Shown: positions 20,299-59,323 of the stretch, one piece after another | Layout of the letters: each line of letters starts with the position of its first letter | Position numbering within the stretch: position 1 is the first letter of the stretch | NCBI GenBank assembly: GCA_973895155.1 | Contig: OZ316892.1 | Location: 19,353,769-19,417,768 of the forward strand | DNA length: 64,000 nucleotides | Reading direction: 5' to 3' | Source: Marsupella aquatica | Lineage: Eukaryota; Plantae; Marchantiophyta | Notes under the pieces: model-generated | What the model was told of the DNA's origin: nothing | Databases searched by the model: none | Seen by the model: the letters and a program-made list of their open reading frames with translations, nothing else | Translations under genes and position numbers: made by a program

Positions 20299-20339
20299 CA
20301 CCTATCCCTACGCAGCACACAACTCACAAGTAAGAATGC

Positions 20340-20361
20340 CCCCTCCATCTAGCGCCAAAAA
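20340..20361 (-). promoter_or_regulatory. PBS of the family-B element (Tat-like TGGCGCTAGA.GGAGGG)
   Basis: TTTTTGGCGCTAGATGGAGGGG directly after the LTR end CACCACA and shortly upstream of the gag ATG at 20298. Confidence 0.8.
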
Positions 20362-29500: not shown

Positions 29501-29860
29501 AACCGAGCGAGCTCCGCCCGTTCCCTTGCTGCTCATTCTGGCTTGACGTCTTCGTAAGTTGGTATGAGCTACCGTGCTTCTTCAAGCAAACAGCCCCATA
29601 ACTTGGCCGCCTGATTCACCGTGGTCATTCCACCAAAAGAAAAAGGAGCTTGAACAATTCCCTAACCACCTCCCTTGATCAATCGGCAGCTGCTTCCGCG
29701 GTCCTAGGTTGATCGAATAAGCAAATGAGCAAGTGTATAGAATGTCGGTCCCCTCCCTGCGAAGCCGCTTCCCTATGGCTTGCCTGATTAAGTCTGGATT
29801 AGGTCATAACCCTAATCCTACTCAATTGTGACCGTTGGATCTTACCTGATCGCAATCCTC
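26537..29860 (-). pseudogene. Decayed LTR ORF of family B
   Basis: Fragments such as FVWIPTSAELDELL, FRSFPRPSTKNGFFRNQCTNPH, PVPGVRTLGRF and LPGGDWPEEI...EYGDMCGLLALEIFG align in order with the family-A ORF. The C-terminus likely continues at 21200-21735. Confidence 0.88.
27483..27825. mobile_element. MITE (343 bp), ~26-bp imperfect TIRs, 4-bp TSD TATG
   Basis: ATCAATCTATTCATTAAAAGTG ... CACTTTTAATGAATAGGGTGAT. Removal restores ARNDIQERQLPGGDW. Confidence 0.9.
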
Positions 29861-36694: not shown

Positions 36695-36703
36695 TATAAA
36701 AGG
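36695..36703 (+). promoter_or_regulatory. TATA box of Sola1-like transposase 1
   Basis: TATAAAAGG with an upstream CCAAT (36656), a downstream CATTTC and the ATG at 36854. Same layout as at 45252. Confidence 0.6.
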
Positions 36704-36853
36704 AAGAGCTCGCATCTGTTTTTCATCTTCATTTCTCGTGATTACTTTGAGGTTTGTTCAGTATTGAGTAGTTGTTTTCATAGAATACTGTAATCTGAAT
36801 TTTCTCTGTTGGATACGAATACGTACTCCTATACAACCCTTGTTTGATTCTCT

Positions 36854-39800
36854 ATGGCGTCTTCAAGTGATGAGTCAATTTATAGTTTAGATGCATCTTC
36901 GCCAGATGTTGTTCAAAAATTTATTCCATCTCGTTTGATGAATGAATTACCAGCCTCACAGAGAGTAGTGCCAGAGATTTCATTTTCCTTAGAATCTGAG
37001 AAATCAGAGTCTGATTCAGAGTCTTGTAGGAGTGTTGTGGGTGCTCCAATTTCATACTATGTCTCTCCAAGTAAACCTCTTAAACAATGTCTACTTGTAA
37101 AGAAGCCTAATGTAGTTCCTACGATAGAGACACTTGGTTCACCGCAAACCCCGACAGATCTTCAAAGGCGAAGGCCCCGGTTTTTAATGCCAAGAACAAC
37201 GTTACCATGTAGGCCCACCCAAAGATCTCCGTTGGTTTTTCCAATGTCTCGTTCTCCGGGAGTGAAGATAGCTGTGTCCAGTGTTCAATCACAGTTTGAG
37301 CGAATGAGGAGTCCAAATGTGCCAAAATTGTAGGGAGGGGCAGCCTCGGAGCCCAATTTGGTGGGTTGAATACCAAGTGGGATCCATGGATCCCACTTGG
37401 TATTCCCTACTCAAATGTTGAGAAACGGTGAACGCGAATTGCCTATTTCGTCTCCTTCAATACCAAATTCCTTGGGTCAAATACGAAGTGGGATCCATGG
37501 ATCCCACTTAGTATTCCCTCGTGGTATTTTGCAGAATCCTGTGCCCGAGTCACCGGTCTTGCGGACTTCCAACCCGAGTTCCGATGGTGGAATGCGAAAT
37601 GGGATACGCGGATCCCAGTTCGTATTGCGCAACGGAAAATTACCAAGTCATGACGCAGAACAGCAAGTGGGAAAGTTTTCACTTCAAAGTCCCAAAGGAC
37701 GAATACGAGTTGGGATCCATGGATCCCAATCGGTATTCCCATCAGTTATTTCACCGAGTGGTAAAACTAACAACATGGGACTTCAAAGCCCTTTGGCGAG
37801 GATGCAGTGTGAGGTTTTTGGATCTTCCATTGGACGGCAAGTGCAAAACAAAAGAGGAAAGAGATCTAGTGTCCAAAAAATTCCTCGGAGATTATTGCAA
37901 AGTGAGCTGCCGGAGAGAGGGCCCAAAAATTCAAGGGTACATGCTAAATTGAAACTTGTCCAAAGATTATTCAATGGTCAAGATGAGCCCTCAAGTCGAG
38001 AAGAATCACCTAGGCTGGGATTACAGTCTCAGAGATAAGTGGGCGGTACTCCGACTGAAGATGTGAATATCATTAGAAGATTTCAAACTAGAAATCTCCG
38101 AACACCTATTACATTTTCAGAAGACTCTGAAGAGAGATCAGAGGAGGCTGCAAATGACAGAGAGACTGCTGTAATCTCAAATGTTGTTGAAGAGATCCTG
38201 TGATGTGAGATTGTTCATGAAACAGTTACAGAAAATATGGAGAGTGGAAACAACTCTACATAAGATCTTTTTGTTTTAAATTCTAATTCACTAGAAAATA
38301 GTGGGGGGGGGGTAAAGTTCTCCCGACACTATTCAGGATAGAGTAGAGGTGACAAGACCCAGCAAGAAAATCAGAGATCAGATGATTAGAAAAGATAGAC
38401 TTACCATTGCAAATCTAAAAAAATGCAAAATTAAAGATATTTTTAAGTATCCGTGTTGTGACAAGTTTTGCTTGAGGTCTCTGGGTCTAGAGGAATGCTC
38501 AAAACAACGCAAGTATTATTTTGGTCTTAAACACTTGCAAAAAAATATTTTGCTACGAGGTTGTATCATGAACAACTGTAGTACTTCTCGTGGATATAGT
38601 GTAAATGGACAACCTATATGTAGAGGAGGATTCAAGAAACTATATTCTTTAGGTAATAATAGATTGGCAACAATCCATGCAAACATGTTTACAAGGATTG
38701 AACGGGATACCTTTTGTAAGGAAGACTCACCTTCATTTCTAAACTTGGTGGAATGGTTGAAAGATTTTTTCCAAAAAAATATGGATAGTCTTCCCCATAA
38801 AGAGATTCATCACTTGCCAAACAATTGGACAAAGCAAGAGATACATGGAATCTTTGAAGCTGAAACAATGTTGCGAGAAGAACAACAAGTTACATATTCT
38901 TATTTTTTGCGTGTTTCGAAAAAAGTTTCCAAATGTACGAATTCCTAAAAGGAGTCGATTTTCTACTTGTGGTCCTTGTACTGAATTCAAGGCTCTTCGG
39001 GACAAAGCAACAACTGAATAGGATAAAAGTAAGTTCCACTAACTATAACCTTCAACTTTAATTTGATGACATGTAATTCAATATTTGTCAAAGTTTATCC
39101 TTAGTTACTGATTTTTAATTCATTGCTATTGTATCATTTCAGGAAAGTATATCAATGCCCTTATGGAGCATCGAAAAGTACAATCATTGGAAAGGATGAA
39201 GTTAGCCAAGCATCGTAAAAAATGCTATGATGAGCCCAACAAGTATTTGGGTATTTGTATAGATGGTATGGATCAAAAGAAAACAGAGCTACCACATTTT
39301 CTTCGTTGTCCAAAGAACATGGATGAAAAGTATTTCATTCCAATACATGTTGTAGGTTGTCTCATCTTCAACAGGAACCTTGTAGCAAAAGTATTTTTGA
39401 CATATCCCAATATCCATAATGATGCAAACTTGACCATACATGTTATTCAAAATGTATTGAATACATGGGATGGGACATTACCAAGAGTGTTATATCTTCA
39501 ATTAGATAATACCACTCGGGAAAACAAGAATAAATTCTTGATGGCTTATCTTCACATGTTAGTAGATTTGAAGATTTTTGACAAGATTAAAGTGGGTTTC
39601 TTGTTGGTCGGTCATACACATGACCAGATAGATCAGATGTTTAGTAAAGTTTTGTCTAGGTTAAACAAGCACAAAGCATTTCGCTTGGAGACTCTTGAGG
39701 ATATTATTTGACGAGCATATTCACCTGAAGCTTTGATCATATTTGTGGATGAAGTAGCCGATTTTTGAAAATTTGTCAATGAAAACGACCAGCCAAATGA

Positions 39801-40160
39801 GAAGGGAGTCTCAGGTAGAGTCTTGAGAGATCTCAATCTCATAACTTTTCAAAGGCAATTCAAATTCAACGAGTCATGGAGGATGAAAACGAAGAGACAA
39901 CATTTCACGGGAAACATCTTTCCACGACCCAGGATTGGGAAGATGCAGTGACGTTCGTCAATTACATTCCAACTTCAAGAATGTGGGTTGCTGCACAAAT
40001 GTCACTGAAGTCAGCAAAAGGTGTTGAGAGGGATGATGTCCATGATTCTTCCAATACAGATGGTGCATTAACTACTCTGGTGAAATATGAAAAAGCTATC
40101 CAACAAGAAGCCTTAAAGGATGGGTCTAAGGCCTTAATTCCTTTTTCCAAAAAATTATGA
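36854..40160 (+). pseudogene. Sola1-like DDD transposase 1, disrupted and 3'-truncated
   Basis: CC.K.C, ICR..FK.LY, HLP, F..C..C, an intron at ~39029-39142, then IDGMDQKKT, LQLDNTTRENKN and LLVGHTHDQIDQMFS. Several stops and frameshifts. Confidence 0.85.
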
Positions 40161-40422
40161 TTTTTAGAAATGTAGTCCTAAAACAAGCAATAAAATCAGC
40201 ATATTTGTTTGACATTCACCCTTTGCATTTTAAACTAGACTTTACATCAATGTTTGAGACAATACATATTCAAAACTTGATTTTCATAGAATTGACCTGT
40301 CAAAAACAATCATTTATATCATAGTCTAGGCTCCAAGGCCATTGACATCTCAAAACTTGCAAGTAAAGTCTACTTCTATGCAACTAAAACAACCCTAAAA
40401 AGTCTTACAGAAATATCCTCAG

Positions 40423-43400
40423 CTAATCATCTCTTGTTTCCTCAACACTTCCAACAACTCCCGAAGAGTCAAGTCCTATGATTTCCTCCTCTCCAACTCC
40501 TATCTCTAGTATTGGTAGAATGGTCTCTTGAACATCAACATCTAAATCCACCATGCCTTTGCCATCATCTTCCTCAATGTTGTCCACCAGGTTTAGAATT
40601 CTCCCTTTCAAGACACTACTCTAGCGCTCATCAATTTCTATAGCAACACAATGTCTTCCTTGTGCCAAAGAGGAAGACAATCCTGTGCCTGACCCTGAAC
40701 AAATATCTAGCACCCAGTCTCCAACCTGGCTAAAGTGGGTAACTTCCCAATCCAATAACACTCTTGGCTTTTGGTAAAAGTTCACCATCTTATTGTCCCT
40801 ATTGTGTTTCAACTTATTGGTCACAGCTGGACACACAACCACATTATTTCGAGACTCATTAGTCTCAAAATTGAAATGCTCCAAAGACCGTTTCCCATCC
40901 TGACTATGAAAGCCAATGGTGAAACACTCAAAATTGCTGTTAAGCCTTGCACCTCCTGCATTCTTAACATTGTCTTTCACCCTGCAAAAACCAAAACTTG
41001 CATTATGGATTTGTTTCAAAATCAAACATCATGAAATCATGAACACCAAAAAAACATATTCACCTTTTGAAATGTTTCTTACCAAATACAATTCTGGAAA
41101 CCACCATTACACTCAGCTTTCAAGACAGTCTTGACAACATCATACTGGTCAATACTATGATGAATGATAATTCGCCAAAGATTTGCCTTGGTGACAACCT
41201 TGAAGGACTGAACCATCTTGGTCACCACTTCCACACCCCATCCAACATTGTCTTCGTGAAGACAAGCAGTCATTCCAAACCCATAAGGAATATCTGCCAA
41301 AGCCAATGTGTAAGCTCGTGATGGGATTACCTCGTGCAACCTCTGAGCATCGGGTGTAAAGATATCATAGTACACATCCCCAAACTGTGGATGCTCAAAA
41401 GCATTAGGATGAAGTTCACTTCCCTGGGTCTCTTGGCAAGATTTCTTCATTACCAACCAGTTCTGTGCTTGTGCAATATGTGCATTGAACTTATTTGGGA
41501 AGGACTTCAACTCTTTGCTTTCTTCATTCTCTCCCTTCTTTTTCCGGGAGCTGCTGTCTTTCTGAGAAAACAAAATTGGGTACATGAGATTCCTACATAC
41601 TTAAGAATAAAACTGTAAAACAAATGCTCAGTCAATCTCAAATAAACTTACCCAAGTCTGGAAGATAGGAACAAAATTCTTCAGCACATTATCAGTGCAG
41701 TGTTCTGGGTACTTGGTTTTGCAATTCTTGCAACTCTCTTCGTGAAGACAGGTAAGAAATGCTTTTTGAACTTGCATTTGGAATTTGTGTCGTTGAAATT
41801 CCTGTCCCATCTCTTGAAGAGATAATTCCTTTGCCAAAACCCTTTGTAGCACTGGACAGATCATGTCCGGATCTTTCAATGCCTGCATGTGTCTCCACTC
41901 AGTCAACTTCATATCCTCACATAGCATTTTAGCATCTCCAGACTTGGACATCTTTTTCTTGGTCTTATCTCCTTTCTGTCCTTTTATCTCACAATTCTCC
42001 CATCTGTCAAAGATCTGCCGTATGAAAGACCAAACAAGATCCTTACGAAATGCCAACTGAAATAAATTATCATTGGCATTCAGAACCTCAGAATCTTTAC
42101 GTACACCCCAGTCCTTTAGATTGATTTCAGTGGCACACTCCTTCTTGAAATCAACATTTGATGATGATCCATTCTCTACAAATCGCATGTGAATGTAATT
42201 CACTCTTTGGATGGTGCTCATTTGTTGATGAAATTCAGAGTCTATATTATGACTCCAAGCTAAGTTCCTTGCTTCCTGGATAGACAGACCTGCAAAGATC
42301 CAAGATTGCACTCTCCTGTACGACTTGTTGTTGGGAAATTGTAATGCTAGGTCTACCTTTGCACAAGCAGAATGATTTCCCCCAATCACGTAATAGTGGT
42401 AATCATTCTTTTTTGAGAAATCAAAATCAGCTCGAGTTGGGCACTCCTTGGGATCAACCACGAGAACAAAAGGTGATGCCAATGGACTAGCTCCAGCTGC
42501 TTTCATCCTTGTTGTCAACTGTGTAAGAAAGTAGGGCTGGATATGCCTTACTTGGTACACTGGCAACTCCAAAGATTTCTCCCGAACAGGTGGGTGAAGT
42601 TGTGCAATGTCAATTGTGATTGTCTCCTCTTGAACTCCACACCTCATCAAAATCCCTTCCTGGTACACCACCCGAGCATCCATAGACATAGATTGAGCCT
42701 TCTGCTCCAGATGAGTGGGGACTTTTTCTAACGTCTGCTTCTTGGATTTTGGTGGACTTGGTCTTGCACCTTGAGAACCCTCTGGTCCACGTTTCTTTGA
42801 TGAAGTCCGAGTACCGGCAGTGCCCTGTGCTGATCCTCCTGTCACAGTTGTCCCCTCTTGTGATCTTGCAATTTGTGAACCAGCACCAGATATTGGAGAT
42901 GTAACAACCATCTTTCTTGCTGGGACAGAACTCGGACGAGATCCGGAAGGAGCAGAAGAAGGACCAGACTTTGGTGGACGGGCACTGGCACTCTTCTCTG
43001 CTGCTTTTCGAAGAATCTCCCTAGACTTTCGAATTGCACTCTTCAATGTGCTGGCATGATGTTCAAACACAAAACCAGCAATGAGCTCTGCAATCTCATT
43101 GTAGCTTTCTTTTGCAGACAGATTCTTCACCTTCTCAATAATCATCTCAATGTCATCAGGCAAGTAACAATGCGCAGCTCTTCCAGAAAATCTCTCACTG
43201 TCAACTGCAATCAGTGTAGATGTCTCCTTTGTTGTGATAAGCATATTGAGGACATCAGCCCCTCGTCGAAAGACATCAATCCGGCCATAATTCACCCAAC
43301 CAAGACCTCCAGAAGGCAAGGTCTCGTAGATGCACAACATCAAAAAAGGCTTCTTCCACGATTCTGTACCCAATGATATTGTCCAGGAAGAGTTTCCAAA

Positions 43401-43466
43401 ATCTGTCAATGGATGCTCAACGAAAATAGCGTCTAACACCTTCTCCTGTGATTTTGGTTCAACCAT
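40423..43466 (-). CDS. ParB/Srx-like domain fused to a beta-class amino (N6-adenine/N4-cytosine) DNA methyltransferase; three coding exons, one late in-frame stop
   Basis: Exons 43466-41652, 41561-41083 and 40981-40621 (to 40423 if TAG was CAG) join in frame through GT-AG introns of 90 and 101 bp. Motifs: YYVIGGNHS (ParB/Srx-like), LALADIPYG (motif IV), YQKP, VLDICSGSGT (motif I), CVAIEID (motif II). Confidence 0.85.
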
Positions 43467-43789
43467 TCTGACTTCCTGAAATCAAGTCCAACAATGCAAA
43501 GTCAGCTCTATTTGTTTTTCAAGTTCAGTTGCAGAATTCAGGTTCATGATTTCATGAAGCAAGGTTCTTACCTTGACAGTGTGAGTCGGAAGTTGAATTT
43601 GCAGCGCCTGAGCCTAGACGGTTGTTCCCGCTTAGAAGAGTGTCACTGGTATTTTTCTCCCTGATTTTGGCTTAGCTTATGTCCTTCACCTCCCTGGCAG
43701 ATGCTCGAGCTGATCGACCCCTCCCCACTTACTGTCGTTTGCAATGTACTACTCGATTTGGACCTCGTCTCTTCGTCAATGGACCTCCC

Positions 43790-44300
43790 CTGGCCCTTCG
43801 ACAGTTTCTCCTCCCCCGGCCTTCGCCAATTTCTTCCTCCCCTGGCGCTTCGACTATTTCCCCTCCCCCAACCTTTGACGCTCGCGCCCATTGCCTCGAC
43901 AATTTTTCTTCCCCCCGCGCCTCGACAATTTTTCTTCCCCCCTCGCTCGCGCCTCGACACTTTTTCTTCCCCCCGGCCTCGACACTTTTTCCTCCCCCCG
44001 CGCCTCGACACTATTTCCTCTCCCAGGCCTTTGCCAATTTTCCCTCCCCGAGGCCGGCGCTTCTTCCCCGCACCCCTGGCTGCACCTCGACAATTTTCCC
44101 CTCCCCGAGGCCGGCGCTTCTTCCTCGCGCCCCCGGCTGCGCCTTGACAATTTTTCCCCTCCCCTCGGCCGGCGCTTCTTCCTCGCGCCCCCGGCTGCGC
44201 CTCGACAATTTTTCCTCCCCCCGGCCTTTGCCAATTTTGCCTCCCTCCCCTGGCCTTCAAGAATTTCTCCCCCGTCCCCCGAATTTTTCCAATTTCCCCC
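43790..44300. repeat. C-rich/G-rich degenerate tandem array upstream of the methyltransferase gene
   Basis: Repeated CCTCGACA(A/C)TTTT(T/C)C.TCCCCC units and ~60-bp CCGGCGCTTCTTCC..GC.CCCC.GGCTGC.CCT.GACAATTTT units. The ORFs here are low-complexity by-products. Confidence 0.85.
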
Positions 44301-45251
44301 CAGGCCTGAGACAATCCCCTTCCCGAGCGCAAACTTGCACGACAGCTTTTGATCTTGCTGCCTCCTAACCAAATTTCCTCCACTCCCTTCCACGATTAAT
44401 CCTCTGTTCCACGACCGATCTGCGCCTCAACAGTCAGGAAATTACAGAGCTGCACCAGATGTTGGTCCGCCCCCGATTTTCGTTCCAGTTTAGGGATTCA
44501 ACCCAACTCCTATTCAGACCACACCAATCACTGAGGGAAGAGCTTTCCACAGCACCAAGCATCAGCCCACCATAGCTCTTCGCCAAGCTTCCTTTCCGTT
44601 CGCCCTTTGCAGATGCACGCCCACACTCCAAGCACCTGACAATCCAATTTGTCTCAAACTTAGCATTTTCTAATTTTTGGGTTCATGAATTCATGAAGCT
44701 TTCGCCACCTCCACTTCAGGATCCAGGAAGGTCGTAACCCTTCATGAATTCATGAAAGGGAATCTAGTATCATTTTGAAAGAATCTAGTAAAAAGTCAAA
44801 ATTTGGGCCCAAAATAACAAATACCATGGGTAAAAGAAATACAAGAAAAACCAAAAAAACCTCTAAAAATAGAGGTCATCAAAGACATTTTTTGTTGCAA
44901 TTGAGTAGTCTCCAAAAACATCAAAGAAAACATGGGGTAAAAATGACCAATGCATTACTGATACACTATCTTAAGAGTTTGGCATGAAAACATATGCTTT
45001 AAGTAAAAAATAAAATTATGAGAAGACTCACAATATTCAAGGAGAAGACTTCACAGGAATGAATTAACCAAGTCTCCAAGAACTCTAATGAGTATTAGAA
45101 ACTGAAAACATAAGTAAACCTGTGAGATTTGGATAAATAATAAACTATTTTCTCATGAAAGATTTCTTTCCTTGTCACTAATTACTAATGAAGGGCGTGG
45201 CCCTTTTTCTTATTTTATTGCTAATTAAGTTTTTGAGTTATTTCCAAAATC

Positions 45252-45260
45252 TATAAAAGG
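45252..45260 (+). promoter_or_regulatory. TATA box of Sola1-like transposase 2
   Basis: TATAAAAGG...CATTTC...ATGGC (ATG at 45357). Confidence 0.6.
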
Positions 45261-46802
45261 GGCTTCGTATTCATGACTATATCTCATTTCGATTTTTCAG
45301 TTTGAGTTCATTTGGTGTTCTAGGTGTTCCCTTGTGAGTTTTGTGCAATTTTTGAAATGGCAGCCTGTTATGAGTCAGACGATTATTCTGATGGTATTTC
45401 GGATGATGTTTCCTTCCCGGATTGTCCTTGTCCTGTTACTTCTCCAGATGCTCCTAGTAAAACCACTATTTTGGAGATGCTTCCCCCAACTCCAATGAGT
45501 AAGTTGAAAGGAAAGGCTCTAAGTGTACCAAATATTCAGCAAAAAGTATTTGGTCCTTGTCTGAGTGAGCACTCTGAGTCTTCGGACTCATCTGAGAGTA
45601 CAAGTCCCCCTGGCCGTCAAGTATTATCGAATCCTTCTCAAAGGGGGGCTAAATTGGGTGTGCGTTCTGTAGGCCCTCAACATAGTGGAGATGTGAAAAA
45701 GAGGACTCATGAATTCATGAAGGCCAGATCTGGAGATGTGTCAAAAATGCCTTGTGAAAGCCCAAATGTGGATTTTTGTGCACTCCGGGAAAGTCGTGGT
45801 GTGCAACATGCACCAATGAAAGAGAGTGAGTATTCTCGTCCTACATCTTTCAGATTTCAAGAAGGAGTGAGAGCGGAAACAAGGAGGCTGCTTGGAACTG
45901 AGACTAATTCGAACAAGGAGAGGATCAATTTGAGAAGATCTCCAGGGAACTTCGATCGTTTGGCTGAGGTTGGAAGCGGATCTAAGTTGGCATACAACAA
46001 GGGCAAGAAGAAGGTCTTTGAGGAGATTCCAAACAAGAGGCCAAGAGAGTCAACCGAAGGTGGTTTCTTTGGGGATTCAGATGGAAATTGATCAAACTCA
46101 CTCATTTTGAGAGTGAAGGAGGAGCCATTGAGTCCTCGAGGGCCCGCTTGAGGCCGGGTGAGGAGGGGTTTGTCTGCATACCACACAACTACATTATCAG
46201 GACTTTTTACGTGTTACATGAAGACGTTAAGCCCGACGTCTCCTTGCTGCTAAAGAAAGGCGACATACTCGACGTGAATGACGGCACGTTTTGTACGAAG
46301 TAACAAAGGTTACAGTTTACATCGTCCAAAACTACGTTACATACGTCAGTCCATACTACGTTACATATTAACGTCGTAAATAAAGACGTTATTATGGACG
46401 CAGATTGAACAGGGAAATCAGCTGATAACATCGTTTAAAACGACGTTAATTTCAGATTACGTAGTTTGTGACTTTGTTAATGATGAGTCTGTCCAGGACG
46501 TATGAGTAGTTAGTCGTGTGAGGCTTGGTAAAAATGGTGTTAACGAGAACGTTTGAAAATAGTATCAAGAATGGAGAGACGTGAATGGAGTGCCGTTTGT
46601 GGTAAACATTAATCTTGTATGGAACATCCTTCCAGGCTACCTTAGTTGGGTGGGCTTTAGGTTTAGGTTCATATACACACGGAATACACATAAAATAGAC
46701 ATATGAAGTCCGGAATGCCACTATAAATGGGTGGCGTCAAAAGTTTGTGCCAAAAATGTACAAAATGTAGGTGGACGTCCACCTAGTCATGGATGGTATA
46801 CC

Positions 46803-47063
46803 CTAATGCCGTTGAGAGCGGCTCCTATCACGTCCAGACCTACGAACAGAAATACGTGGCGGTGCCTCCGACTGTTTGCCTCGGGGCCGCAACTCGTACC
46901 GAAGTGGATCCTCGTCTGAACTACTGCTACCAGACACCAACTCCACAGCTCCCTTGCCTCTACTCCTAGGGACTACATCTCTAGTGCCACTGTGTCCCCT
47001 AGTGGTATCCCTCTCGACACGGCTCCTCTTCCTCTCTCTATGTCTCTCCCTCCCCCCCTCTCT

Positions 47064-47095
<32 letters not shown>

Positions 47096-49006
47096 CGTCG
47101 TCTATGGCTGGTATGACCCCTATTAGTCTCCACTGGAGGGAGAGGTTAGAAGATGACCGGCCCTGTGTACCTAAACTGCCCTCCTGCCCACAGTCTACTA
47201 AGGCCTCCTCCTGCGTATCAGGCTCCTCCCCTCCATGATCTGCCTCCTCATCTTCCGCAATGGGTCGTGCCACTAACCCCTCTGGAGGACTCCAATCCTC
47301 CTGGATATGACATAAGGGATCAGTTTACCTCCTGCAAATAGTGGATGCAAAACCTAGTATAGAAGGAACCTAACCTGACTATGTAACTTACCATTGGGTG
47401 GTCCTCCGGGACTGAGTCCAGCTTAGCCCATAGGGCCGCCGGGCCATAGCGTTTTGAATAGAGCCGCTTCTGCTCACTTGGCTCGGCGTTAGCTCCAAAC
47501 TTGCGTTTCTGTAGGAAATTGGAGAACGTCGTCACCATCGTCGTTAACTACAATGTACCTAACGACGTTTTATAATTAACGTCGTCCAAGACAAGGTATA
47601 TAGTGAAACTTCAATATTAACGATGTAGAAAAGACGTTAATTAAATGTAACGTCGCGAGAGACGACGTTAGGTAGGATGAACGTAGGGGGTCTAGACGTT
47701 AAATTTAGAACTTGCGACGTTAGAGGAGAAAAACGATGTTAATTCAATGTTCTCACCGCAGCGGCCGAAGCATGAACAAGTTGTGCTTTGAAGAGGGTGG
47801 GGGACTTACATAGGTTGCAAGGAAGCCTCGCCATCCTCCCTGGCCCCAGAAATTGGTCACACGCAGGCGGCCATTTGATTTGCGGGCTGCAGCAGCTTTG
47901 TCCCCCATGTGCACTCGCTTGCCTACTGGGGTGTCAGGTGCTGCTTCCAACTCAGCCACGATCAACTTGAAGTCGGCGTCGCTCATTCCTTCTGGTTTCA
48001 GGTATTGCTCTGTCCTTGGGCATCTCATTTTTCGAACCTTGTTTCTCCATCTAAACCTCCGATCTGCAAGGTAGCCTACGATCTTTTGTCTGATGTGCCT
48101 ATAGTCTATTTCACGGTCGTTCCTAAACCCAACTTGCACATCGTTCAGGAGGAGCTGAAACTTCTTTGGGTTCTGCACGAGATCCTTCCAAGTTGTCCAA
48201 CCAGGACAGTGCTTGGCACAACACGTCTGCACTCGATTTGTGAGGGCCTTCTCATCCAGAACATCCGGCCTAGCATCAAACGCATCCAAGGTGATGGTTG
48301 GGAGTTTGTCTCGACTCACAGCAGTAGTTACCGGTCGCGCAGGAGAAGGTTGTCGCTTCTTGTGGGAGTGACGTTCACGCTGAGGTGAGTACCTCTCTCT
48401 TCTGTCTGCCCTTGCATCTCCCTTTGTTCTTCTTCTTTTGTATGTACCTCTATTGTGTGGATCTGCATCTCTATACTCCTTCCCTTTCCCCTTCCGTCTT
48501 CTCTCATCAAGGCTGCTATTGCTGTTGTGTGTTCTATCACGATGCCTCCTCCGCCTGCGAGAGTCCCGATCCTGATCAGGCTGGAATCTGTCATGTGCTA
48601 CCCGGACCACACTCTTGATTGGGGTCCCACTAGGTGCCTGAGAATCAAGCTGCATTCCATTGAAGGCAGGATCGTCCCACCCATCATCTAGTAGGGACGG
48701 GAAGGAGTTCAGAGCATCGATCGAAGGCCCCCCATCCTCCCCCAAGAGCGTTGCATTCTCAGTTTCCACATAATCATCGAGGGTAGGAGCATTGGCCTCT
48801 ATATTTTCCAGGTACTCCAGAAACTGAGACTCCTTGCTTCCTTTTCCTCCCAAGAACTTCCAACTCTGGTTGAAAGCATGGATCAGCGAATGTGTCGATT
48901 GCATAGCTTTACGCACCTTTTCTAACTCCCCTGGATCATCCATAGCCACCAAGTCTGCATCAAAATCTCCACTGGAAGGGAGATAGCCTGGATGAGCCAT
49001 AGTCAT
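46803..49006 (-). CDS. TnpA/Ptta-EnSpm-like accessory protein (spliced)
   Basis: Exon 49006-47810 contains YLADRRFRWRNKV..KPEGMSDADFKLIV..AARKSN..NFWGQGGW. The next exon is 47508-47392. The 3' exons are uncertain. Confidence 0.6.
47025..47095. repeat. (CT)n-rich microsatellite
   Basis: Imperfect CTCTCT run. Confidence 0.8.
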
Positions 49007-49421
49007 TCACTGTTAAGATAGGAGGTCGAGAGGGGGAGAGGGGAAGTGTTGAATGTTGAATGTGAGTCACATTCAAGTCACTTCCTGATGTTTTGTTAAA
49101 GGAAAACAGCCGTAGCCCACGAACCTTGGAGACCCGCCGTTACCCTAATTTAACGTCATTAATCACAACGTTAACCAGGAGTGTAGGGTTTAGCGGCGAC
49201 GTTACATATAATTACGTCATACCTAACAACGTTAACTTATTAAGTACGTCGTACATTATTACGTAAACTAAATTCGGCAACCTCCCCACAACCTAAAAAA
49301 CGATGTTAATTTTAGGGGAACGTCGTGTGGATGGACGTTAGTTTGGTTAACGTAGCGGGATATGTTTATGCTTGGGGTTTAATATGTTGTGGGGGCCTTT
49401 GTAAATTTGATCACAGGGGAC

Positions 49422-50956
49422 ATGGCAACCTATGCATCGGACCATGATGGGGGCAGGCATCATCGGCACAGATACCATCATCATCATAGGGGGACGTATG
49501 ATGAGTCGGATAGGCGAAGGGATGACTCGTGTGACGATGACGATGAGCATGGCGGTAGTTCTCACCGACATAGACACCATCATCGGCATAGGAGGAGTTC
49601 AGCTTCATCGGGCTATAGGAGCAATGACGAGCGGCAGAGGAGGAGGGATGACGAGGGAGGGAGGAGGAGGGATGACTCATCCTATGAGGACCATGGTGGG
49701 GGTACTTACACCCGACGCAGAGATGACCATCATCATAGGGGGAGGGATGACTTGTCGGACCGGGAGAGAGATTACTCACCAGACATGTATGATCGATCTA
49801 GGCGTCACCGATCCAGGCGTCGTCGACGCAGACATGGTTCCGACGGTAGGAGAGGCCGGAGCCCCCATCATGCTGATGGATTTGGAGAGGCCATGGCTGC
49901 TCTTCAGGGGATTGGGCCAATTCGCAAGATGCCTTGCCCTTGCAGACGATGCAAGGGTGTTGTCTTACACGAGAGGACCACTGTCCTTAGCCATTTAGGG
50001 ATCCATGGTCGTTACACCCCCCCGACCCAAGAGGTAATACAATTTTGTTGGGTATTGCAATTATGATAACATCTCCTTCCTTGAATTGTTTTTTGATTGT
50101 CATATTCTGAACTTGTTTTGGTGAACATGTGGAACAGATTCCTGTTGTAGTGCGATCTTCGCCTGTGGACCGCTTGAGAGACATTGCATATCGTGCACTC
50201 GCACCACTCGTCCATCCATCCGATTTGCCAGCCACATTGAGGGAGATAGACCGTGTATTTCGGAGGAGGAGGAGAGTGTTTAGGATGCACCCTATTGAGA
50301 GGGGAGTAGTGGTGACCACTAGACCCCGATCGATTGAGTCCCGTCCACCTAGGATTGTTCCGCCCCGATGCCCTTTTCTTGATGCATCGGTGTCCCGGGC
50401 ACCGAGACAGTTGCGAGGGAGAGCCTTGGACATCTTAAAGGACTCCTTCCCAGCCCAGTTTGGACTCCCTATGGACCTCCCGCTTCGGGAGCCTATTATA
50501 GTTTGGGACCGCCCATGGGTCATCCTCCCCTCCACATTGGGGACTCATGTAGGACTTGGAGTATTTGCTCTTGTGGATATCGTGGTCCCTACCGGTTGTG
50601 CACCCGATGATTTGCCTCAGTTGTTTCCATTCTATGGGCCCAAGTATTTGGCGGCAAGATGGCGCATCTTGTCCCGACAGTGCCCAACCTTTAGTCGATA
50701 TGGCATGTCACTAAAGTTGGACCCTAGGTATGCTCAGATTGATGGTTACCCACCTCGCACGGGGAACTTGGCGGGTTACATCAATAGCACTATTGGTTCT
50801 CGGCGTTCAGGGTTTAGGCCAAATGCTGAGTGGCACGAGTTCCATGACCAGAGTCACCCTCGTTTGCCTGTAGCATGCACGCATTACATCTTGACACATG
50901 CTACCCGCACCATTAGAGCAGGGGAAGAGATTCTCGTAGATTATGATTGGCATTGA
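49422..50956 (+). CDS. Putative spliced protein: His/Arg/Asp-rich region, CPCxxC..HL..HG zinc finger, SET domain
   Basis: Exon 49422-50033 joins exon 50138-50956 in phase 0. SET motifs VGLGVFA, NLAGYINS and ATRTIRAGEEILVDY; no internal stops. Confidence 0.72.
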
Positions 50957-51089
50957 TGTTTACATGTGTACATGACATATTCATTATGGGGTGACCCTTG
51001 AATTTTTCATTATTGATGTTTCACTGTAAGCTTTATCACGGAAACCCTTTCTCTAATTGTTATTTGTCATTGCATATTGAAAACTCTAG

Positions 51090-54000
51090 GATGGTGTACA
51101 TATTACTCCCACACCTCACCCATCAATGATGACTACATCAGCCCGTGCCTTTCACGTACGTGCCACCTTACATTTCTCAGACGAGGAGGATGCTGAGGGT
51201 CAGCCCCTTGACCATGATGAGATGGACGATGAGGATGAGGAGTACCATGATGCATATGATGGAGAGTTGGATGATGATGGAGAGTTGGATGATGATGTTG
51301 ACGATGAGGGAGATGAGGGAGATGAGGGAGATGACCCTATCCTTGAAGAAGATGCCTTTGCCCACCTTGTTGACGTTCACTTTGGACCTCATGCACCTGA
51401 CGCCGAGCACCCTATCATGGAAGTGGATCAAGAAGATTGGGATCACTTGGAGACTGAAGCCAGAACACCACTATTTGAGGGATCTCCATCCTCATGGTAA
51501 GGTTGTCCTAAAATTATCACAACTCCGGAATTTCATCCAGTGAATATTGGGCAGTCTAAATTGTAGTGCCAGGCATGCCATCTAGCTACTTGGACTAACT
51601 GCAAAAAGTCTGGTGTTTGTGGTTTTGCAAATCCAGGTTGGGTGCAACTTTGTTGATGTTGAATTTGCAAGGAGTTTTCAATGGTTCGGATGTCCATACA
51701 GATGCACTCTTCCAATTGTTCCACGACAAACTCTTGCCCCAACCAAACACTCTCCTTGGATGTGTGAGGGAGGCTAAGAAGTTGTTAGCCTCAATTGGAT
51801 TGGCTTTAGAGACTATCCACATGTGCCCAGGTGGGTGCATCTTGTATAGAGGGGTGTACAAGGATCACACTCACTGCCCAGAGGAGCACTATAGGCTTCC
51901 ACGGTATCGACCAGACACCATTGGAGACAAGATTGTAGAAAAGGTAATGTTTTCCTCAACGCAATGTGAGAACAAGAAAGTCCAACTTTTAACGTTGCAT
52001 TCTTTCAAACAACGTCGTACATGACTATGTAATTGATTACTTTACGTCGTCCATCTCACTTTATGTCTTTCCACCTGACGTTTTTTTGTTTTTACGTCGT
52101 ATGGGATGCAGTAACTAACGTCGCATGGTACATTAGGGTATGAAACATCGTCCTTTACGATGTTAGTTTTAATAATACGTAGTGTGGAAGGACGTTTATT
52201 GTGATTGTCGTCAAATTGACGACGTTACATTGGATCTGGCAGGTTTTTCGTTATTTCCCAATCACTCCCCGACTTCAGCATCTCTACCGACGAAAGCACT
52301 TATCCACACTACAGACTTGGCATGTGGAGAACAAATCCCCACCAGGGATAATGCAATACCACCAAGATAGTCCAGCGTGGAAGCACATTGATGCCACTTG
52401 GCCAAATTTTGCCCAGGAGCCAAGAAATGTTCGTTTGGGGTTGGCAATCGATGGAGTGAACCCATATAAACAACGACGGAAGCCAAGTCCATCTGGCCTG
52501 TTCTTTTGATAAATCAAAACATCCCTCCATGGTTGGCAATGAAGAAGGGTCATGTGCTTCTATTAGCTATAATTCCTTGACCCAAGGCCTGTAAGAATCC
52601 TGATATCTGTTTGGCTCCAGCTTATGAAGAGCTACATAATCTATGGGAGGTTGGAGTAGTGACAACAGATGTCACTCGTGAAGCAGGCAATGGTAGGACC
52701 TTCAATATGAGGGTGATGATCACTCATTGCACCACAGATGGTCCAGGTAATTCATTGGGCAACCCAATGACTATTGTTTGCACAATGTCATGTACAATGC
52801 AAGTGTTGGGGTTATTTGTGGTCTGAACATGGTTCAATGAAATGGCAGGTATGGGGACAATATCTGGCCTGAAGGTGGCAGGTTTTTCAGCTTGCCCTTC
52901 ATGTGGCCCAGAGTTGCGTGGGAGGTACTCAAGACTATTGCACAAAACCACATATGAGGGCAGTAGGGTCCGGTTGGCAATGGATGACCACTTGCGACAA
53001 AACACAACACATTGGGCAGAGACTGAAGTGCGGCCATGTCCTAATGGCCCTTCAGCTGAAGGACAAATTCAAATGGCAGAGAAGGTGGAAGCAAAGTTAC
53101 TAAAACCCAAGGATTGTGGAGTAAACCGACGCTCAGCTATGTGGGACTTGCCTTATTGGAGGGTAAGTGATAGAAGTGCATGGTTCCTTTACAGCAAATT
53201 AGACCAATAAAATTCTTAATTTAGAGATTGCAACTGATTCAATATGTTATTTCAATTTCCAGAGACTCCAGGTTCGATGGTTGTTGGACCCCATGCACAT
53301 TGAAGTGAATGTTGCTAAGAACTTGGTGAAGCACATTTATGGGACGAATGACACTCGTGGAGTCCGAGAGGATGCTGAGAGGGTTGGAGTAGTGAAGAGT
53401 TGTTGGATAACACGTACTGGGGAGAAACCTCCTGGTCCTTGGATTTTTCCAAGAGAGGTTTTGAAGGACATGAATGGGATGATAAGCGAGATGAAGTTCC
53501 CTAGCCATTACGGAGCTGGTTTTCGTGGGTGCACTACAAGGAATGATCACATACCCCCAATAGGGTTGAAGTCTCATGATTATCACAAGTTGATACAGCA
53601 TGTGCTACCAGCAGTCTTGCGTTGTTGTGATGATTCCCGGGAGCGTCGTTTACTCCGTCTGACTATATATGAGATGTGCTCCATTTTTAGGTATGATAAC
53701 GTACCCTCTCTTCCATTGCTCTCTTGCAAGTTCTTGTTACCGCTGAAGGAGCCATGTAATTCAACAAGTATTTCAAACTCATTTTTCTATGGCCCTATGT
53801 GGATCTGATATACAAAATCTTTGATGGTTTTGAGGAGGAACATAGGTGGGTATGCGCTAAGGAGATAAAGGAGTCTGAGATTCCTTTGATGAGAGAGAGG
53901 TCAGCTCGCGTGATGTGCAATATGGAGAAGGTGTTTCCCCCATGCATATTTGACATGCAATTGCATTTACTATGTCACTTGGTGGATGAGGTCGCGATTG

Positions 54001-55075
54001 CTGGTCCTGTCCATGCACGTTGGATGTATTGGGTAGAGCGCTTCATGAAAGTGCTCAAGTCCATGGTGCGTCAACCAGCTCGACCAGAGGGAAGTATGGC
54101 AACGGGGTATATCATGTCGGAGTGCCTCTTTTATTCCGGAGGGATGATAGGGAGTTTGGACACAGAAGCTCCCACAGCTTGGGAAGAGGCACAAGATGAT
54201 GACAATGGTGGGTTGCGTTTGATGGGTGCATCAAAAAAGCGTTCACTACATGACAACATACTTCGCCTACAGATCCACAATTATGTGTTGGGAAATCGCC
54301 CAGAGATGTCTCAGTGGAGGGAGTTGCATAGGTACATATATGCAACTCTATATAATTGTTAATCTAACAGTAGACGTTGTTCTACATTCTATGTGTGTAG
54401 AAGTTAGAGTGGGTTCAAGGAGCACTTCTTTGGATTGTGCAATATTCTCATGGATTCATACATTTTTTGCAGTGCATTCTTGGAGCAGCAACCGATAGTT
54501 GCACAACGGTATGCATTATTTCGCGTATGGGCATTGGAGCGCATGGATAGGCTCCTTGCAGAGCATGAACCCTTATCCATTCCCATTGATGTACAGAACA
54601 TCATTAGGGGACCAGGGTTGTGGGCAATGACCCATACACACATGTATGAGTCAGGGCACCACTTTCGCACTTGGAGGACAGATCACATGAAGAAGAGTAC
54701 ATGTAACTCAGGAGTGTTCATGTTGACAGACCCAGGTGATGTTGAGATTCCCTATTGTGGCACTATATTGGATATTTTAGATGTTCACTTTGGGTCATTT
54801 ACTACTATTGTGTTAGAGGTGCGGTGGCACAAATCCATCATGTCACCTCCACATAGAGCCACCATGGTGAAAGATGAGTGTGGGTTCTATCGGGTAGACA
54901 CGACTCGTGTAGCACCATCCGGGACTGAGGTTAGTGACACTATAGTAATACACTGATCCTAGCCAGGTGGATCAGTGTATTATGGTTCCGATGCACACTA
55001 TGAGAGGATGGTCCATCGTCATTCCCATCTTCCCACGACGGAGGAAGGGTTTGATGGCATCAGTAATTGTAGATG
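51090..55075 (+). pseudogene. CACTA TnpD-type transposase, exons 2 onward (exon 1 at 49422-50033)
   Basis: IHMCPGGCILY, FRYFPITPRLQHLY, DSPAWKHID..EPRNVRLGLAIDGVNP, LDPMHIEVNV, GLKSHDYH, GPVHARWMYWVERFMKVLK..PEGS, YCG.I.DI and DECGF. GT-AG introns; a frameshift near 52475 and stops near 52578 and 54954. Confidence 0.92.
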
Positions 55076-55604
55076 ATATGGATCCATGACCATAAATGTA
55101 TTCGGTGCATGTATATATTCGTTATGGCCACCTTCATGTGGGTTTGTAGCATCTGTGGGTAACGTCGTTGTATGACTATTACGTCCGGTAGACCAATGTA
55201 TCTTCAAACTACGTCGTATCAGGCAGACGTTAATTCCAATTAACGTCGTTTTATTGAGCCTTCAACGATGTTAATTTAGCCACAACCCCATTTACGTTAC
55301 TCCACACGACGTTGATTCTCCACTTAAAATGATGTTAAACTAACTTACGTCATTTTAGGGTACGTATTAAACCAAAGACGTCGTGTATTGCAACGTTACT
55401 ATATCCGCGCGACGTTAATGACAGTGGTGACATTAATTGGCACATGCATTCAAAATGAAAAACATGAGGGAGTCTTTATTCAGTTTCAGTATGATATAGA
55501 GATACAAAGGTCCTACAAAGCACATTGCATGTCCACCACAAAGCGACTATAACCTAGCCAAATCACTAAATTGCCTCATCCATTGACATCCAGATTGTTG
55601 CTAC

Positions 55605-56165
55605 TTAAGGAGTTCCTTCACCAGACCAGTAGTACTCCTCATCTGCCTTCCTTCTTTTGTAAGAATCACGCCTCTGCCTCTGGTTCCATTTCTTGCGGAT
55701 GACCTCTTCCCCAGCCTTTAGCCTTTCAGCCTCAACCTCAGCTGCACAACTTTCCTTGTAATCATACAAGACAATGTGAAGCTCAGTCGGAGACAGCTCA
55801 CATTTGGGCAATGTAGGTAGATATGCTTCCCCATCATCTGGGTTGGGCGCCTCATCCAACATCTGATCATCACCTGGATGCAGCAGGAAGTCTCCTGGAT
55901 CCAACTGTTTGTTGGCCAGAATTGAGCACTCTACCCAACGGATAGAAATGAAATGAACTGTCTCTGCAAAGTGCTCGATCAATCCATGGTAGTCACTGAA
56001 GTGCTCAACAACTTCTTTCCACGTATAGGCCAGCAAGTAGTCTGTTTCCGAGGTACACAACTTCTCAATAACACCTCCCCGACAAAAGAACCCACGTATA
56101 GTCTTGTCCTCTTCACCAAGTGGAAGGAAGCAACAATGCACATCTTTGAAGAACTTGCGCACCAT
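55605..56165 (-). CDS. Hypothetical 186-aa protein inside the CACTA element
   Basis: Stop-free ATG ORF with protein-like composition, bounded on both sides by the element's repeat blocks. No recognised domain. Confidence 0.5.
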   Translation of the reverse strand: MVRKFFKDVHCCFLPLGEEDKTIRGFFCRGGVIEKLCTSETDYLLAYTWKEVVEHFSDYHGLIEHFAETVHFISIRWVECSILANKQLDPGDFLLHPGDDQMLDEAPNPDDGEAYLPTLPKCELSPTELHIVLYDYKESCAAEVEAERLKAGEEVIRKKWNQRQRRDSYKRRKADEEYYWSGEGTP

Positions 56166-59100
56166 GACTGAACATTGAGTCTAGATCCCACGCTGCAATT
56201 TCTCTGTACTCAGGAAGAGTGCATTCTCCAAAAATCACAAATGCAAGCCTACTTTGGTCTCAGCACTCTTAAACCAAAATCCTCCCGTAGAAAACCCAAG
56301 CTATACTCGAGTCAGCATGGACTACTCCTCATTCAAGTCGTCCACACCGATGTACTCAACGTCTAACATGGCTTGATTCAATTGGAACGTCCTACAGAGC
56401 AACGTTACCACTTTTACGTCTCCCTCCACGACGTAAACATTGACGTCGTTATACCCTAAACACATTACGTCCTCTAATACGTCGTTAATATTGAACGATG
56501 ACCAAAACGACGTTTAGGACAGCTCATCCAGAGACGTTAATTTTAAACGTGTTTCCAGCGACGTTAAAATGGGGGCAATCAGCGCTTAGATTTCTCCGAC
56601 GTCGCCGTTATGTCGGACGTAGTTATAAATGTAGTCATGGAAGTCGTTAATTATATTAACGACGATTATGAGGAGGTATTGTTTGCATCCGACGCAACAA
56701 AATCTAGTTGTGCCAACTCGATAAACTTGTGGAGATATCTTCTTCAATCAAAGAATCTCCTTCTGAGAGTGATGGAGAGCCTGCAGAGAGAGTTATGATG
56801 GCTAATAAACGACCGTCAAATCTCAGCTTGTGTGAAACAAAGATGACAGACGAGGATATCAAGAAGACAAATCGTAAGTACTGCTGTCAACGTCATTGTC
56901 TCTTGAGTCTTTCACCAAAACAAATTCGTGAAGCACGCTCAAAGTTTTTGAGGCAAAAATCTCAGGATCAATCTTTATCTTTGCAGTGGCTCGTCAAGCA
57001 AGACGGAAATGAAGAGGGGAGGTCCAATGTCACATACATGATTGGACAAAGAGATGTGTGTCGGAAAGCTTTCAAGATGGTCTTTTGTGTAGGAAATGAG
57101 AGATTGAATAGGATCAAGAAGCTAGGCAATCAAGATCTTGCTTATCCTAGACCGGCTGGTCGACCTCCATCTGTGAGAACATTGGTATTGAGCTCTTGGT
57201 TGAAGTCTTTTTTTGAGACGCGTGTGGAGACTCTACCAAATAAAGATGTTTCACATTTGCCTGATAATTATTCCAAACTAGAAGTTTGGAAAATATATGA
57301 TTCAAGCTATGTGATCACTGATGAGTCATCCAAAATATCATATCGGCAATTTTTGAAAGTATGGTCACAAGACTTTGGGCATGTGAAGATTCCTCCTGTG
57401 AATCGTTTTAGTGCTTGTGCGGACTGTGAGGAATTCAAAACGATTCGAGACAAAGGAGTCTCTGAAACTGAAAAACGTAAGTCATTTTCATTTTTGTTGT
57501 TTTGAACATGTCTTTGTATTAGATTCGTCAGGAAATCAATTGAGTAATGGCTAAACATTAGGAATGAATTTCAAGTTAACAACTTTGCTCTACCATTTTT
57601 TGATTCATTGCAGGGAGAGGAGAAATAATGTTACAAAAACATCGAGAACAACAATCGAAAGAGCGGGAAAAACTAGCAAAGCATCGAAAGAAATGTTTCA
57701 CAAACCCAGAAAAATATTTGGGAGTTGTGATTGATGGAATGGATCAAAAAAAGACTAGATTACCCCATTGGCCACGTCCTCCAAAATCCGTTGATGAGGC
57801 CTGTTTAATCCAAATGCATGTGGTTGGTTGTCTTCTTTTCCATGGAGCACTATTTTCTAGGGTGTTCCTTAATTATCCAGTTCTCCATAATGATGGAAAT
57901 CTTACCATTACTATTTTACAAAGAGTATTCCTAGAATACCAAGAGAAGTATGGGGGCCTTCCACCAGTTTTTTACCTTCAGCTTGACAATACAAGTAGGG
58001 AAAACAAAAACAATTTACTTTTCACATATCTTCACATGCTGGTACAAAAAAAGGTATTTCGAAAAATCAAACTTGGATTCCTCTTAGTTGGACACACCCA
58101 TGATCAAATAGATTAGATGTTTAGTAGGTTCTCAAAAAGGCTTGGAAGATTTAAGGCCTTTACCTATGATAGTTTATGTAAGATTATTCAAGAATCTTAC
58201 CAACCCCAACCTGAAATTACCCTTTTAAATGAGACATATGATTTTCGAAAATTTGCTTTCTCAGAGCCTGCTTTGATCAGAGAAAGGATACGAAATGTTA
58301 CTTTTCATCACCAATATAAAATTTCTTTTGCTTGTGAAGATGATCAAGTTCCAACACAATGGGGGAAGAAATTTTCCACCGACACGGTTTGGAAACCAGA
58401 AGGAGGTGTTAAATTGTTGAAAGAAGACATGCCACCAAAGGTGATTGGGTGCTCTGATGGGATGCCACTTATCAAGAAAGGAGACAAGAAACGAGATGAC
58501 GGAAGGGCGGGAAATCAAGCTCATGTATCATCTTCAGGAAAAATGACCTTGTCCGAAATGGATGATTGTTTGAATGAAATTCAAAAAGGTATATTTGCAG
58601 CTCAGATATTATTCTCGGAAGAAGAAGTTGTTTGGTGGACTTCTTTTTTTGAGGAACAAAGAGAATTCAATCGATCTCTCTTGCTTGAAGAAAGACCTTT
58701 GATCTCTCCATTTGAATGGCCCAAGGCACAAGGGGATACAAATGTTGAAGCTGATCTCGGAGCTGAACCTCTTACAACAATATTGAATGAGGAAGAAATT
58801 GAAGAGAGAGTGTACGGTCCAACTAGAGAAATTTATGTTGGTCCATATCGAAATCAAGAAAAGATAGATGCAGAGAAGGAGAATATGGAAGGTGATTTTT
58901 CTGATTTGGAAATCAACACATTTATTTCTGTGGCCGGAGAGAAGTCTGAATCATTTTGGGTGGCTAAAGTAGAAAAAAATGTTCTTCGCGATGAGGCTCA
59001 CATCCCAAAGATTATCTCAGTTCTGTGGCATGCAGCAAAGAAAGGATCCGACCCTTGGAAAGGAAAATATCTGCCAGAAGTGTTGAGTTACGAGAAGAAG

Positions 59101-59323
59101 AAAAGTGGACGAGGCAAGGGAACCTTGAAACCAGTTTGGTTTCGTCAAGACCTTGATCTGTCTTCAACTACGGTCTTTGCATATAATTTTATGCTAACAA
59201 GGTCTGATACTCTTTACAAGAAAACAATAGATCGTATTAAAATACGACTCTCAGAATTTCTCAAGGAGGAGAAAGACCAAGAAGGTGAAGGTAGCATAGT
59301 TAGAAATTATCAACAAGAAACTT

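Follow-up and report, generated by a model that had tools for sequence, protein, structure and literature searches.

The window analysed here, a stretch of 64,000 nt from the liverwort Marsupella aquatica (GenBank assembly GCA_973895155.1, contig OZ316892.1, positions 19,353,769 to 19,417,768 of the forward strand; coordinates below count from its first nucleotide), is best read as containing the decayed remnant of a plant element that exists in multiple copies and is likely a cut-and-paste transposon of Sola1 type. In it a gene for a DUF7869 transposase stands head-to-head with a spliced gene encoding a ParB-fold domain fused to a beta-class amino-methyltransferase. The product of the latter gene in intact copies likely binds palindromes of the element itself and is predicted to methylate element DNA, and we put the probability of this reading as a whole at roughly 0.6. 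It is carried by the structure of the gene, the two protein folds, intact motifs, purifying selection, a recurring linkage to the transposase and a conserved palindrome that the window has in this element only; what we infer is mobility, copy number, which protein recognises the palindrome, which base is modified and how the element profits. A preliminary description of the window, made from the DNA letters and their open reading frames (ORFs), had proposed that a transposon carries a bacterial-type, intron-containing DNA methylase. The fold, the beta-class arrangement of the motifs, the splicing, the presence in multiple copies and, in other genomes, a linked DUF7869 gene have since been found to agree with that proposal, while terminal inverted repeats (TIRs) and a target site duplication (TSD) have not been established. 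The methyltransferase gene consists of three exons:

41652–43466, minus strand: exon 1, encoding an N-terminal domain of unknown type, a low-complexity linker and the ParB/Srx-fold domain with a helical region
41083–41561, minus strand: exon 2, encoding catalytic motif IV (DIPY)
40423–40981, minus strand: exon 3, encoding QKP, the S-adenosylmethionine (SAM)-binding motif I (LDICSGSGT) and AIEID, with a TAG at 40621–40623 in this copy only

Three minus-strand ORF fragments had originally been joined into a protein of 884 amino acids, or about 950 if the TAG had once been CAG, and this model stands. Splicing through two GT..AG introns of 90 nt (GTAAGT..CAG) and 101 nt (GTAAGA..CAG) preserves the reading frame and yields 884 amino acids up to the in-frame TAG and 950 on readthrough. 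Every contig covering position 40623 (7, 4, 17 and 3 contigs in the four sequencing runs) has the A>G difference that turns TAG into CAG, so the stop is private to this copy. The annotated Calypogeia fissa protein P0014 is joined from the corresponding three exons at the same points, with Q where the window copy has TAG; 11 of 12 relatives of exon 1 extend to the identical W at the donor site; and three metagenome contigs (L001, L002 and L003) carry both introns at identical positions and splice without stops. Both introns are supported by sequence conservation and by an annotation. The motifs listed in the preliminary description all occur in the spliced protein, namely IDIAQL at residue 285, YQVR at 304, PFVLVV at 332, GGNHS at 362, DIPY at 695, QKP at 835, LDICSGSGT at 856 and AIEID at 878. 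The window copy itself reads as a pseudogene, with a C-to-T-type stop and CpG depletion (observed/expected 0.31), and premature stops occur both in it and in the two flanking transposases; intact copies exist among the relatives. Bacterial contamination was ruled out by the spliceosomal introns, the plant retroelement context and the plant relatives. The N-terminal 150 amino acids of the methylase (WTISLG..GRID; window 43000–43466, minus strand) are conserved in relatives of bryophyte type and matched no Pfam family, and L001 and L002 have an extra intron within this region.

The methyltransferase domain is detected in exon 3 by the PF01555 profile (33.2 bits, E 6.7e-8; curated cut-off 26.7), against which the spliced relative P0014 scores 32.7 bits and other spliced relatives also pass. 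A check of the fold gave the same answer: the Atlas model of P0014 reached TM-scores of 0.77–0.84 to N6_N4_Mtase clusters in 10 of 10 rows, the top row being a phage cluster of ParB_N plus methylase. As had been noticed at the outset, motif IV is N-terminal to motif I, the beta-class order, and this arrangement is conserved in relatives. Catalytic and SAM motifs are intact and, judged from a non-synonymous divergence (dN) of ~0.3 with a synonymous divergence (dS) of 2.25 or saturated between the window and L001–L003, kept under strong purifying selection. The earlier suggestion that the D of DIPY leans toward adenine gained support, since the first residue of motif IV is D in 40, N in 4 and S in none of 44 matches to a regular expression, which missed some rows and in one case picked up a transposase by chance, and the closest enzymes of solved structure methylate adenine. 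In PDB the relative P0047 comes closest to a DpnA-type adenine methylase (E 5e-5), followed by CcrM (E 1.4e-3), which favours N6-methyladenine (6mA) without proving it. The predicted product is thus more likely adenine methylation than N4-methylcytosine (4mC).

The ParB/Srx-like region, first recognised by its motifs, was also recovered by structure. With a predicted model of residues 255–605 (pLDDT 76.5) as the query, the top seven Foldseek rows against PDB were all ParB/Srx-type entries (best E 0.003), and a search of BFVD returned phage partitioning proteins (best E 4e-6). VIA comparisons with ParB, PadC, KorB and Noc gave Z scores of 8–9.6, among them 9.2 for both Caulobacter ParB (7bm8; root-mean-square deviation (rmsd) 2.7 Å over 99 aligned residues) and KorB (8qa9; rmsd 4.4 Å, 199 aligned). 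The alignments extend, at higher rmsd, into the helical region of KorB, Noc and ParB; the palindrome described below is present and stands as a predicted target only. No Pfam ParB match was obtained by sequence for the window proteins or the spliced relatives, and the fold assignment is structural, taken from the predicted model. The relatives P0047, P0052 and P0073, from metagenome contigs, carry the ParB motif and the methylase motifs in single proteins, which makes the ParB-methylase fusion independent of the gene model in the window. As a side observation, the Atlas feature-space clusters nearest to the ParB region (41652–42704, minus strand) are sponge and mollusc proteins and fungal DUF3723, a neighbourhood that suggests that DUF3723, presumably a Starship accessory gene, is ParB-like; no literature linking DUF3723 with ParB was found.

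Both genes flanking the methylase match the DUF7869 profile and have the DGMDQ, QLDN and GHTHD motifs. DUF7869 is taken here to be the Sola1 transposase; the name Sola1 is provisional, given on the strength of DUF7869 and its motifs rather than of a comparison to a named Sola1 sequence, and no literature naming DUF7869 was found. The head-to-head arrangement with transposase 2 noted earlier was confirmed, this gene starting with MAACYE at 45357 on the plus strand and diverging from the minus-strand methylase. Among 1.84 billion representatives searched, 410 were related to the methylase at E ≤0.001, and the 30 that were looked up include five from Chara braunii, five from Riccia sorocarpa, four (and one cluster member) from Adiantum nelumboides and two from Ginkgo; three relatives are from Calypogeia. 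Paralogues are many, scattered and often fragmentary. Multi-copy status is borne out within single sequencing runs by a high-depth family together with several divergent paralogues, the contig depth being 163–298 for the main family and 13–26 for the divergent paralogues in run X1, and 570–760 and 30–39, respectively, in run X3.

The linkage of methylase and transposase in related genomes, which the preliminary description had left to be looked for, recurs in Riccia, in L001 and probably on two further contigs; the shared TIRs and TSDs sought with it are not fixed. In Riccia the methylase R1sor_010796 and the DUF7869 gene R1sor_010795 have consecutive locus tags, with a chance expectation of ~0.01 by a rough hand estimate. 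On L001 the methylase is head-to-head with an ORF that matches the first 24 residues of transposase 2 (58% over 24 amino acids, E 7e-4; 77% over 47 nt, E 0.001, at the nucleotide level), the transposase core lying off the contig. Two of the three methylase contigs longer than 8 kb are equal in nucleotide length to a DUF7869 contig from the same source (P0001/P0187, 8,829 nt; P0047/P0251, 8,915 nt), and from this equality each pair is probably on one contig. Across the pairs the methylase and the transposase diverge in step from the window (65/34/25% against 74/52/38%). A tblastn search with P0014 against phage and plasmid collections found no match at E 0.1, and scans of viral contigs (queries A1, P0187 and P0047) and of genome contigs (A1) found no relatives, all these searches being limited to patterns and so not implying absence.

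The palindrome TCATG-N4-CATGA is present in five exact copies within 40117–46183 and in none in the remaining 58 kb of the window:

41029–41042, unstranded: copy within intron 2 of the methyltransferase gene; L001, L002 and L003 retain it in that intron
43544–43557, unstranded: copy upstream of the methyltransferase ATG, within a predicted intron of the 5′ untranslated region
44683–44755, unstranded: two copies (44683 and 44742) in the divergent-promoter region
45707–45720, unstranded: copy where the N-terminus of transposase 2 is encoded; the corresponding ORF of L001 also contains one

The contigs L001, L002 and L003 hold 4, 3 and 1 copies, respectively, for a simulated mean of at most 0.017 per locus. 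The simulations overstate the significance somewhat, because the motif was noticed in these same sequences; the conserved position of the intron 2 copy is a check separate from them. In all four sequences one palindrome lies 45–60 nt before the acceptor of intron 2, and selection on it is indicated, since its position has been kept while synonymous sites are saturated or nearly so. We propose TCATG-N4-CATGA as a candidate parS-like binding or methylation site.

The closest published parallel is Sola1-1_Ec32 of Ectocarpus, a giant Sola-1 DNA transposon of 21.5 kb with a 4-bp TSD and 282-bp TIR, whose opposite-strand gene encodes a 1104-amino-acid protein of ParB-like and N4C/N6A methyltransferase parts, for which binding and modification of the element that carries it were proposed; comparable ParB-methylase proteins were cited there for green and red algal transposons (PMC12477816). 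The design and the self-marking idea are therefore already known. The window gene for ParB plus N4/N6 methylase is likewise on the strand opposite to the transposase, but its protein has 950 amino acids rather than 1104 and members of its family were found in Chara, in liverworts, in a fern and in Ginkgo; the two proteins are likened by described design, not by sequence, and the termini of the window element are not fixed. The main text on Sola1-1_Ec32 names no palindrome, whereas the window element has a candidate cis-site (PMC12477816). What we describe is a streptophyte addition to a published ParB-methylase transposon design, seen in a dead copy, and what is new is its distribution in streptophyte plants and the conserved candidate palindrome. 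No published report of land-plant members or of a target motif was found, and the sequence supplements of PMC12477816 and other papers on the subject could mention some. With a specific conserved palindrome and natural intact copies at hand, the published proposal of self-modification becomes directly testable.

Other systems share single features with the element. Phage fusions of ParB_N and N6_N4_Mtase (PF02195 and PF01555) have the same domain order and the same beta-class motif order, but the window gene contains introns, has lost the GxxR arginine and has an extra N-terminal domain. Marchantia DN4MT1a/b and bdelloid N4CMT are likewise bacterial-type beta-class amino-methyltransferases in eukaryote genomes; they are host genes with SPPY and without ParB, shown to make 4mC, DN4MT1 having no extra domains and N4CMT a chromodomain, whereas the window family has DxPY and transposase linkage (bioRxiv 10.1101/2021.02.12.428880; PMC8885841). 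Orthology with DN4MT1 was ruled out by the differing motif (SPPY in 0 of 44) and domains. Retrotransposons of the DIRS and long terminal repeat (LTR) classes that carry DAM also combine mobility with a prokaryote-like adenine methylase for which self-marking has been proposed, and LTR elements with DAM showed raised 6mA and transcription; they are retroelements with another methylase family, and the available text mentions neither ParB, Sola nor bryophytes (bioRxiv 10.64898/2026.05.21.726589). The Arabidopsis VANDAL/VANC system is a functional analogy only. VANDAL belongs to the MULE superfamily, and VANC is not known to be a methylase. VANC is a transposon accessory protein that acts through short motifs repeated in the non-coding DNA of its element and causes loss of 5-methylcytosine (5mC) (PMC5735166).

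In intact elements the divergent promoter would most likely drive both genes. Dimers of the ParB-fold region, formed on the TCATG-N4-CATGA palindromes, would bring the methylase to the element, whose DNA would thereby acquire 6mA; with that mark the element would remain transcribed or be identified as self. The benefit might be that the element is kept active against host 5mC silencing, or that self is marked for the transposase. In a bolder form, land-plant Sola-type transposons would possess a parS/ParB-like self-recognition in which the ParB-methylase is loaded at TCATG-N4-CATGA sites and places 6mA on the element encoding it. Multicellular plants would then have an adenine mark specific to transposons and opposed to 5mC silencing, from a system that would have accompanied the transposase since before Chara and land plants separated; this we offer tentatively and regard as doubtful in its entirety. 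Loss of 6mA from multicellular lineages has been reported (bioRxiv 10.64898/2026.05.21.726589). If the enzyme does make this mark, 6mA in land-plant DNA would have a defined source with an enzyme behind it, and the scheme would represent an anti-silencing route distinct from VANC and possibly a tool for sequence-targeted methylation.

Several observations weigh against the reading of a mobile, self-methylating element. The missing arginine of GxxR, already remarked on in the preliminary description, is absent after GGxH in 27 of 27 motif matches (an R stands one position later in seven distant relatives, the register being set, as we assume, by the GCHR of Srx), and CTP (cytidine triphosphate)-driven clamping therefore cannot be assumed. 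The roughly 10–20-fold ratio of depths suggests some 10–20 copies, contig depth being no copy number, and the concordant divergence of the two genes could come from simple host descent. A DUF7869 tag was seen next to one of five methylase tags in Riccia and to none of five in either Adiantum or Chara, in a check that used an incomplete transposase list (23, 2 and 2 tags, respectively). No inverted partner of the candidate left end (40117–40149, see below) occurs within the window, the right end lying beyond an LTR. A domesticated host gene family, in a segmental duplication or tandem array that has transposases as chance neighbours or as remnants, would fit the purifying selection, the introns and the presence across streptophytes, these adjacency counts and the unfixed TIR and TSD. 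Against this, head-to-head linkage to DUF7869 recurs in lineages only 24–65% identical, the 410 representatives are many, scattered and often fragmentary, the window copy bears the C-to-T-type stop and low CpG ratio given above, and in Ectocarpus the published element encloses this layout in TIRs; we consider a host gene family very improbable.

Within the transposon reading, the base and the reader of the palindrome have alternatives of their own. As Marchantia DN4MT1 and rotifer N4CMT do, the enzyme might write 4mC, whether on the element or beyond it, since it belongs to the same Pfam family, both characterised eukaryotic members make 4mC, and N6_N4 domains are described as having switched repeatedly between 6mA and 4mC (PMC8885841), which also counts against the adenine assignment. 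Both known 4mC enzymes carry SPPY, however, a serine that begins none of the motif IV matches here, and with adenine enzymes as the closest solved relatives we think 4mC distinctly improbable. More weight attaches to the possibility that the transposase reads the palindrome, for end-pairing or transcriptional activation, the ParB-methylase then having other sites of action or serving as an accessory that binds DNA but does not methylate it. A different palindrome, GGATCCATGGATCC (six copies within two mismatches, 36318–37713), is found at transposase 1, upstream of and in its N-terminal coding region, with no methylase upstream of that gene; the occurrence of this palindrome in the corresponding places makes the transposase a serious rival reader. 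Transposases can be sequence-specific activators, according to a recent report (bioRxiv 10.64898/2026.08.24.746577), and the methylase domains of DIRS elements were judged likely inactive (PMC4738411). This alternative is at odds with the strong purifying selection on motifs IV and I and with the location of the best-conserved palindrome in the methylase's own intron, at least ~600 nt from any candidate end, and we rate it as unlikely. ParB-family proteins, moreover, bind palindromes as dimers.

The remaining features of the locus are as follows:

36854–40116, plus strand: transposase 1 (DUF7869), decayed, 57% identical to transposase 2 in the core
40117–40149, unstranded: candidate left end of the methyltransferase element, after TTAA at 40113–40116
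43784–44285, unstranded: GC-rich minisatellite with a ~26-nt unit, between the two divergent genes
45357–46183, plus strand: transposase 2, start of exon 1 (MAACYE...), with two TGA stops
46184–56712, unstranded: nested CACTA/EnSpm-type element of 10.5 kb, with ends CACAACTA and the 3-bp TSD CCA
56716–59328, plus strand: transposase 2, remainder of exon 1 and DUF7869 core, with an intron at ~57478–57613 and one TAG at 58114
59324–63992, plus strand: LTR of 4.67 kb (TG..CA, then TGGC resembling a primer-binding site (PBS)), inserted at the stop codon of transposase 2

Transposase 2 is split in exon 1 by the CACTA insertion, and removal of the latter restores its frame apart from the two TGA stops; its C-terminus is essentially complete, matching P0187 to the end. 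P0187 groups in the transposase 2 clade (support 0.99), and transposase 1 in a different clade. The tail-to-tail arrangement of the methylase with a truncated transposase 1, as first described, also holds: homology of the 36854–40116 gene to intact relatives stops at ~40103, ~200 amino acids short. Sequencing reads reverse several of its stops and frameshifts. As a separate observation, up to eight copies of the palindrome TGGGATCCATGGATCCCA, with GAATAC..GTATTC arms and 111-nt spacing, occur at 36305–37731, upstream of and inside the N-terminal coding region of transposase 1, as a counterpart of TCATG-N4-CATGA in the element of transposase 2.

A left end of the methyltransferase element at 40117 is plausible from the sequence, with TTAA just before it and a divergent copy sharing 32 nt that end at 40149. 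Sola1 DNA transposons have a 4-bp TSD (PMC10741241), and no second TTAA copy is visible in the window; the TIR pair and TSD are not fixed, as the LTR conceals the right end, which falls beyond the window. Depth over transposase 1 is similar to that over the methylase, unitigs start at 40108, and no listed contig spans 40117 with 31 nt on each side; transposase 1 may form part of a larger composite unit with the methylase. For a left end near 35730, in front of transposase 1, which was also considered, no inverted partner turned up. L003:1783 (AGGATG..AGGCC) as the same terminus as 40117 was not significant without gaps (533 of 2000 simulations). The best gapped match to the window end lies at ~L003:1843–1867 (reached in 0 of 1000 simulations for a 33-mer and 43 of 1000 for a 20-mer, and with the whole tail in 28 of 200); it is perhaps what is left of another gene. 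Downstream of the methylase, L003 has a convergent ORF end (1780–1986, minus strand) in which 26 nt resemble window 40121–40146; it is perhaps a third gene of the element, lost in the window copy, and had no match among the 292 proteins collected in the analysis.

The CACTA element, with CACAA ends, encodes DUF4218 and a SET-domain ORF at 50111–50953 (PF00856, E 3e-5), and is a second transposon, with a possible chromatin-modifying cargo. Three LTRs of ~4.67 kb, 96–97% identical and bounded by TG..CA, are present at 10263–14922 (minus strand), 21736–26400 (plus) and 59324–63992 (plus); the first is a solo LTR with the TSD TCCAT and the second is flanked by GATGT/AATGT. Each holds a coiled-coil ORF of up to 1225 amino acids, a long ORF inside an LTR being unusual. 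Further long coiled-coil ORFs resembling this LTR-borne family lie at 32318–34912 (minus strand, 864 amino acids, with no Pfam family above the cut-off) and, as decayed fragments, at 26936–29532 (minus strand). At 17784–20395 (minus strand) a Gag-like remnant with a CCHC zinc knuckle (PF00098) lies downstream of an LTR-end/PBS-like sequence related to the 4.67-kb LTR.

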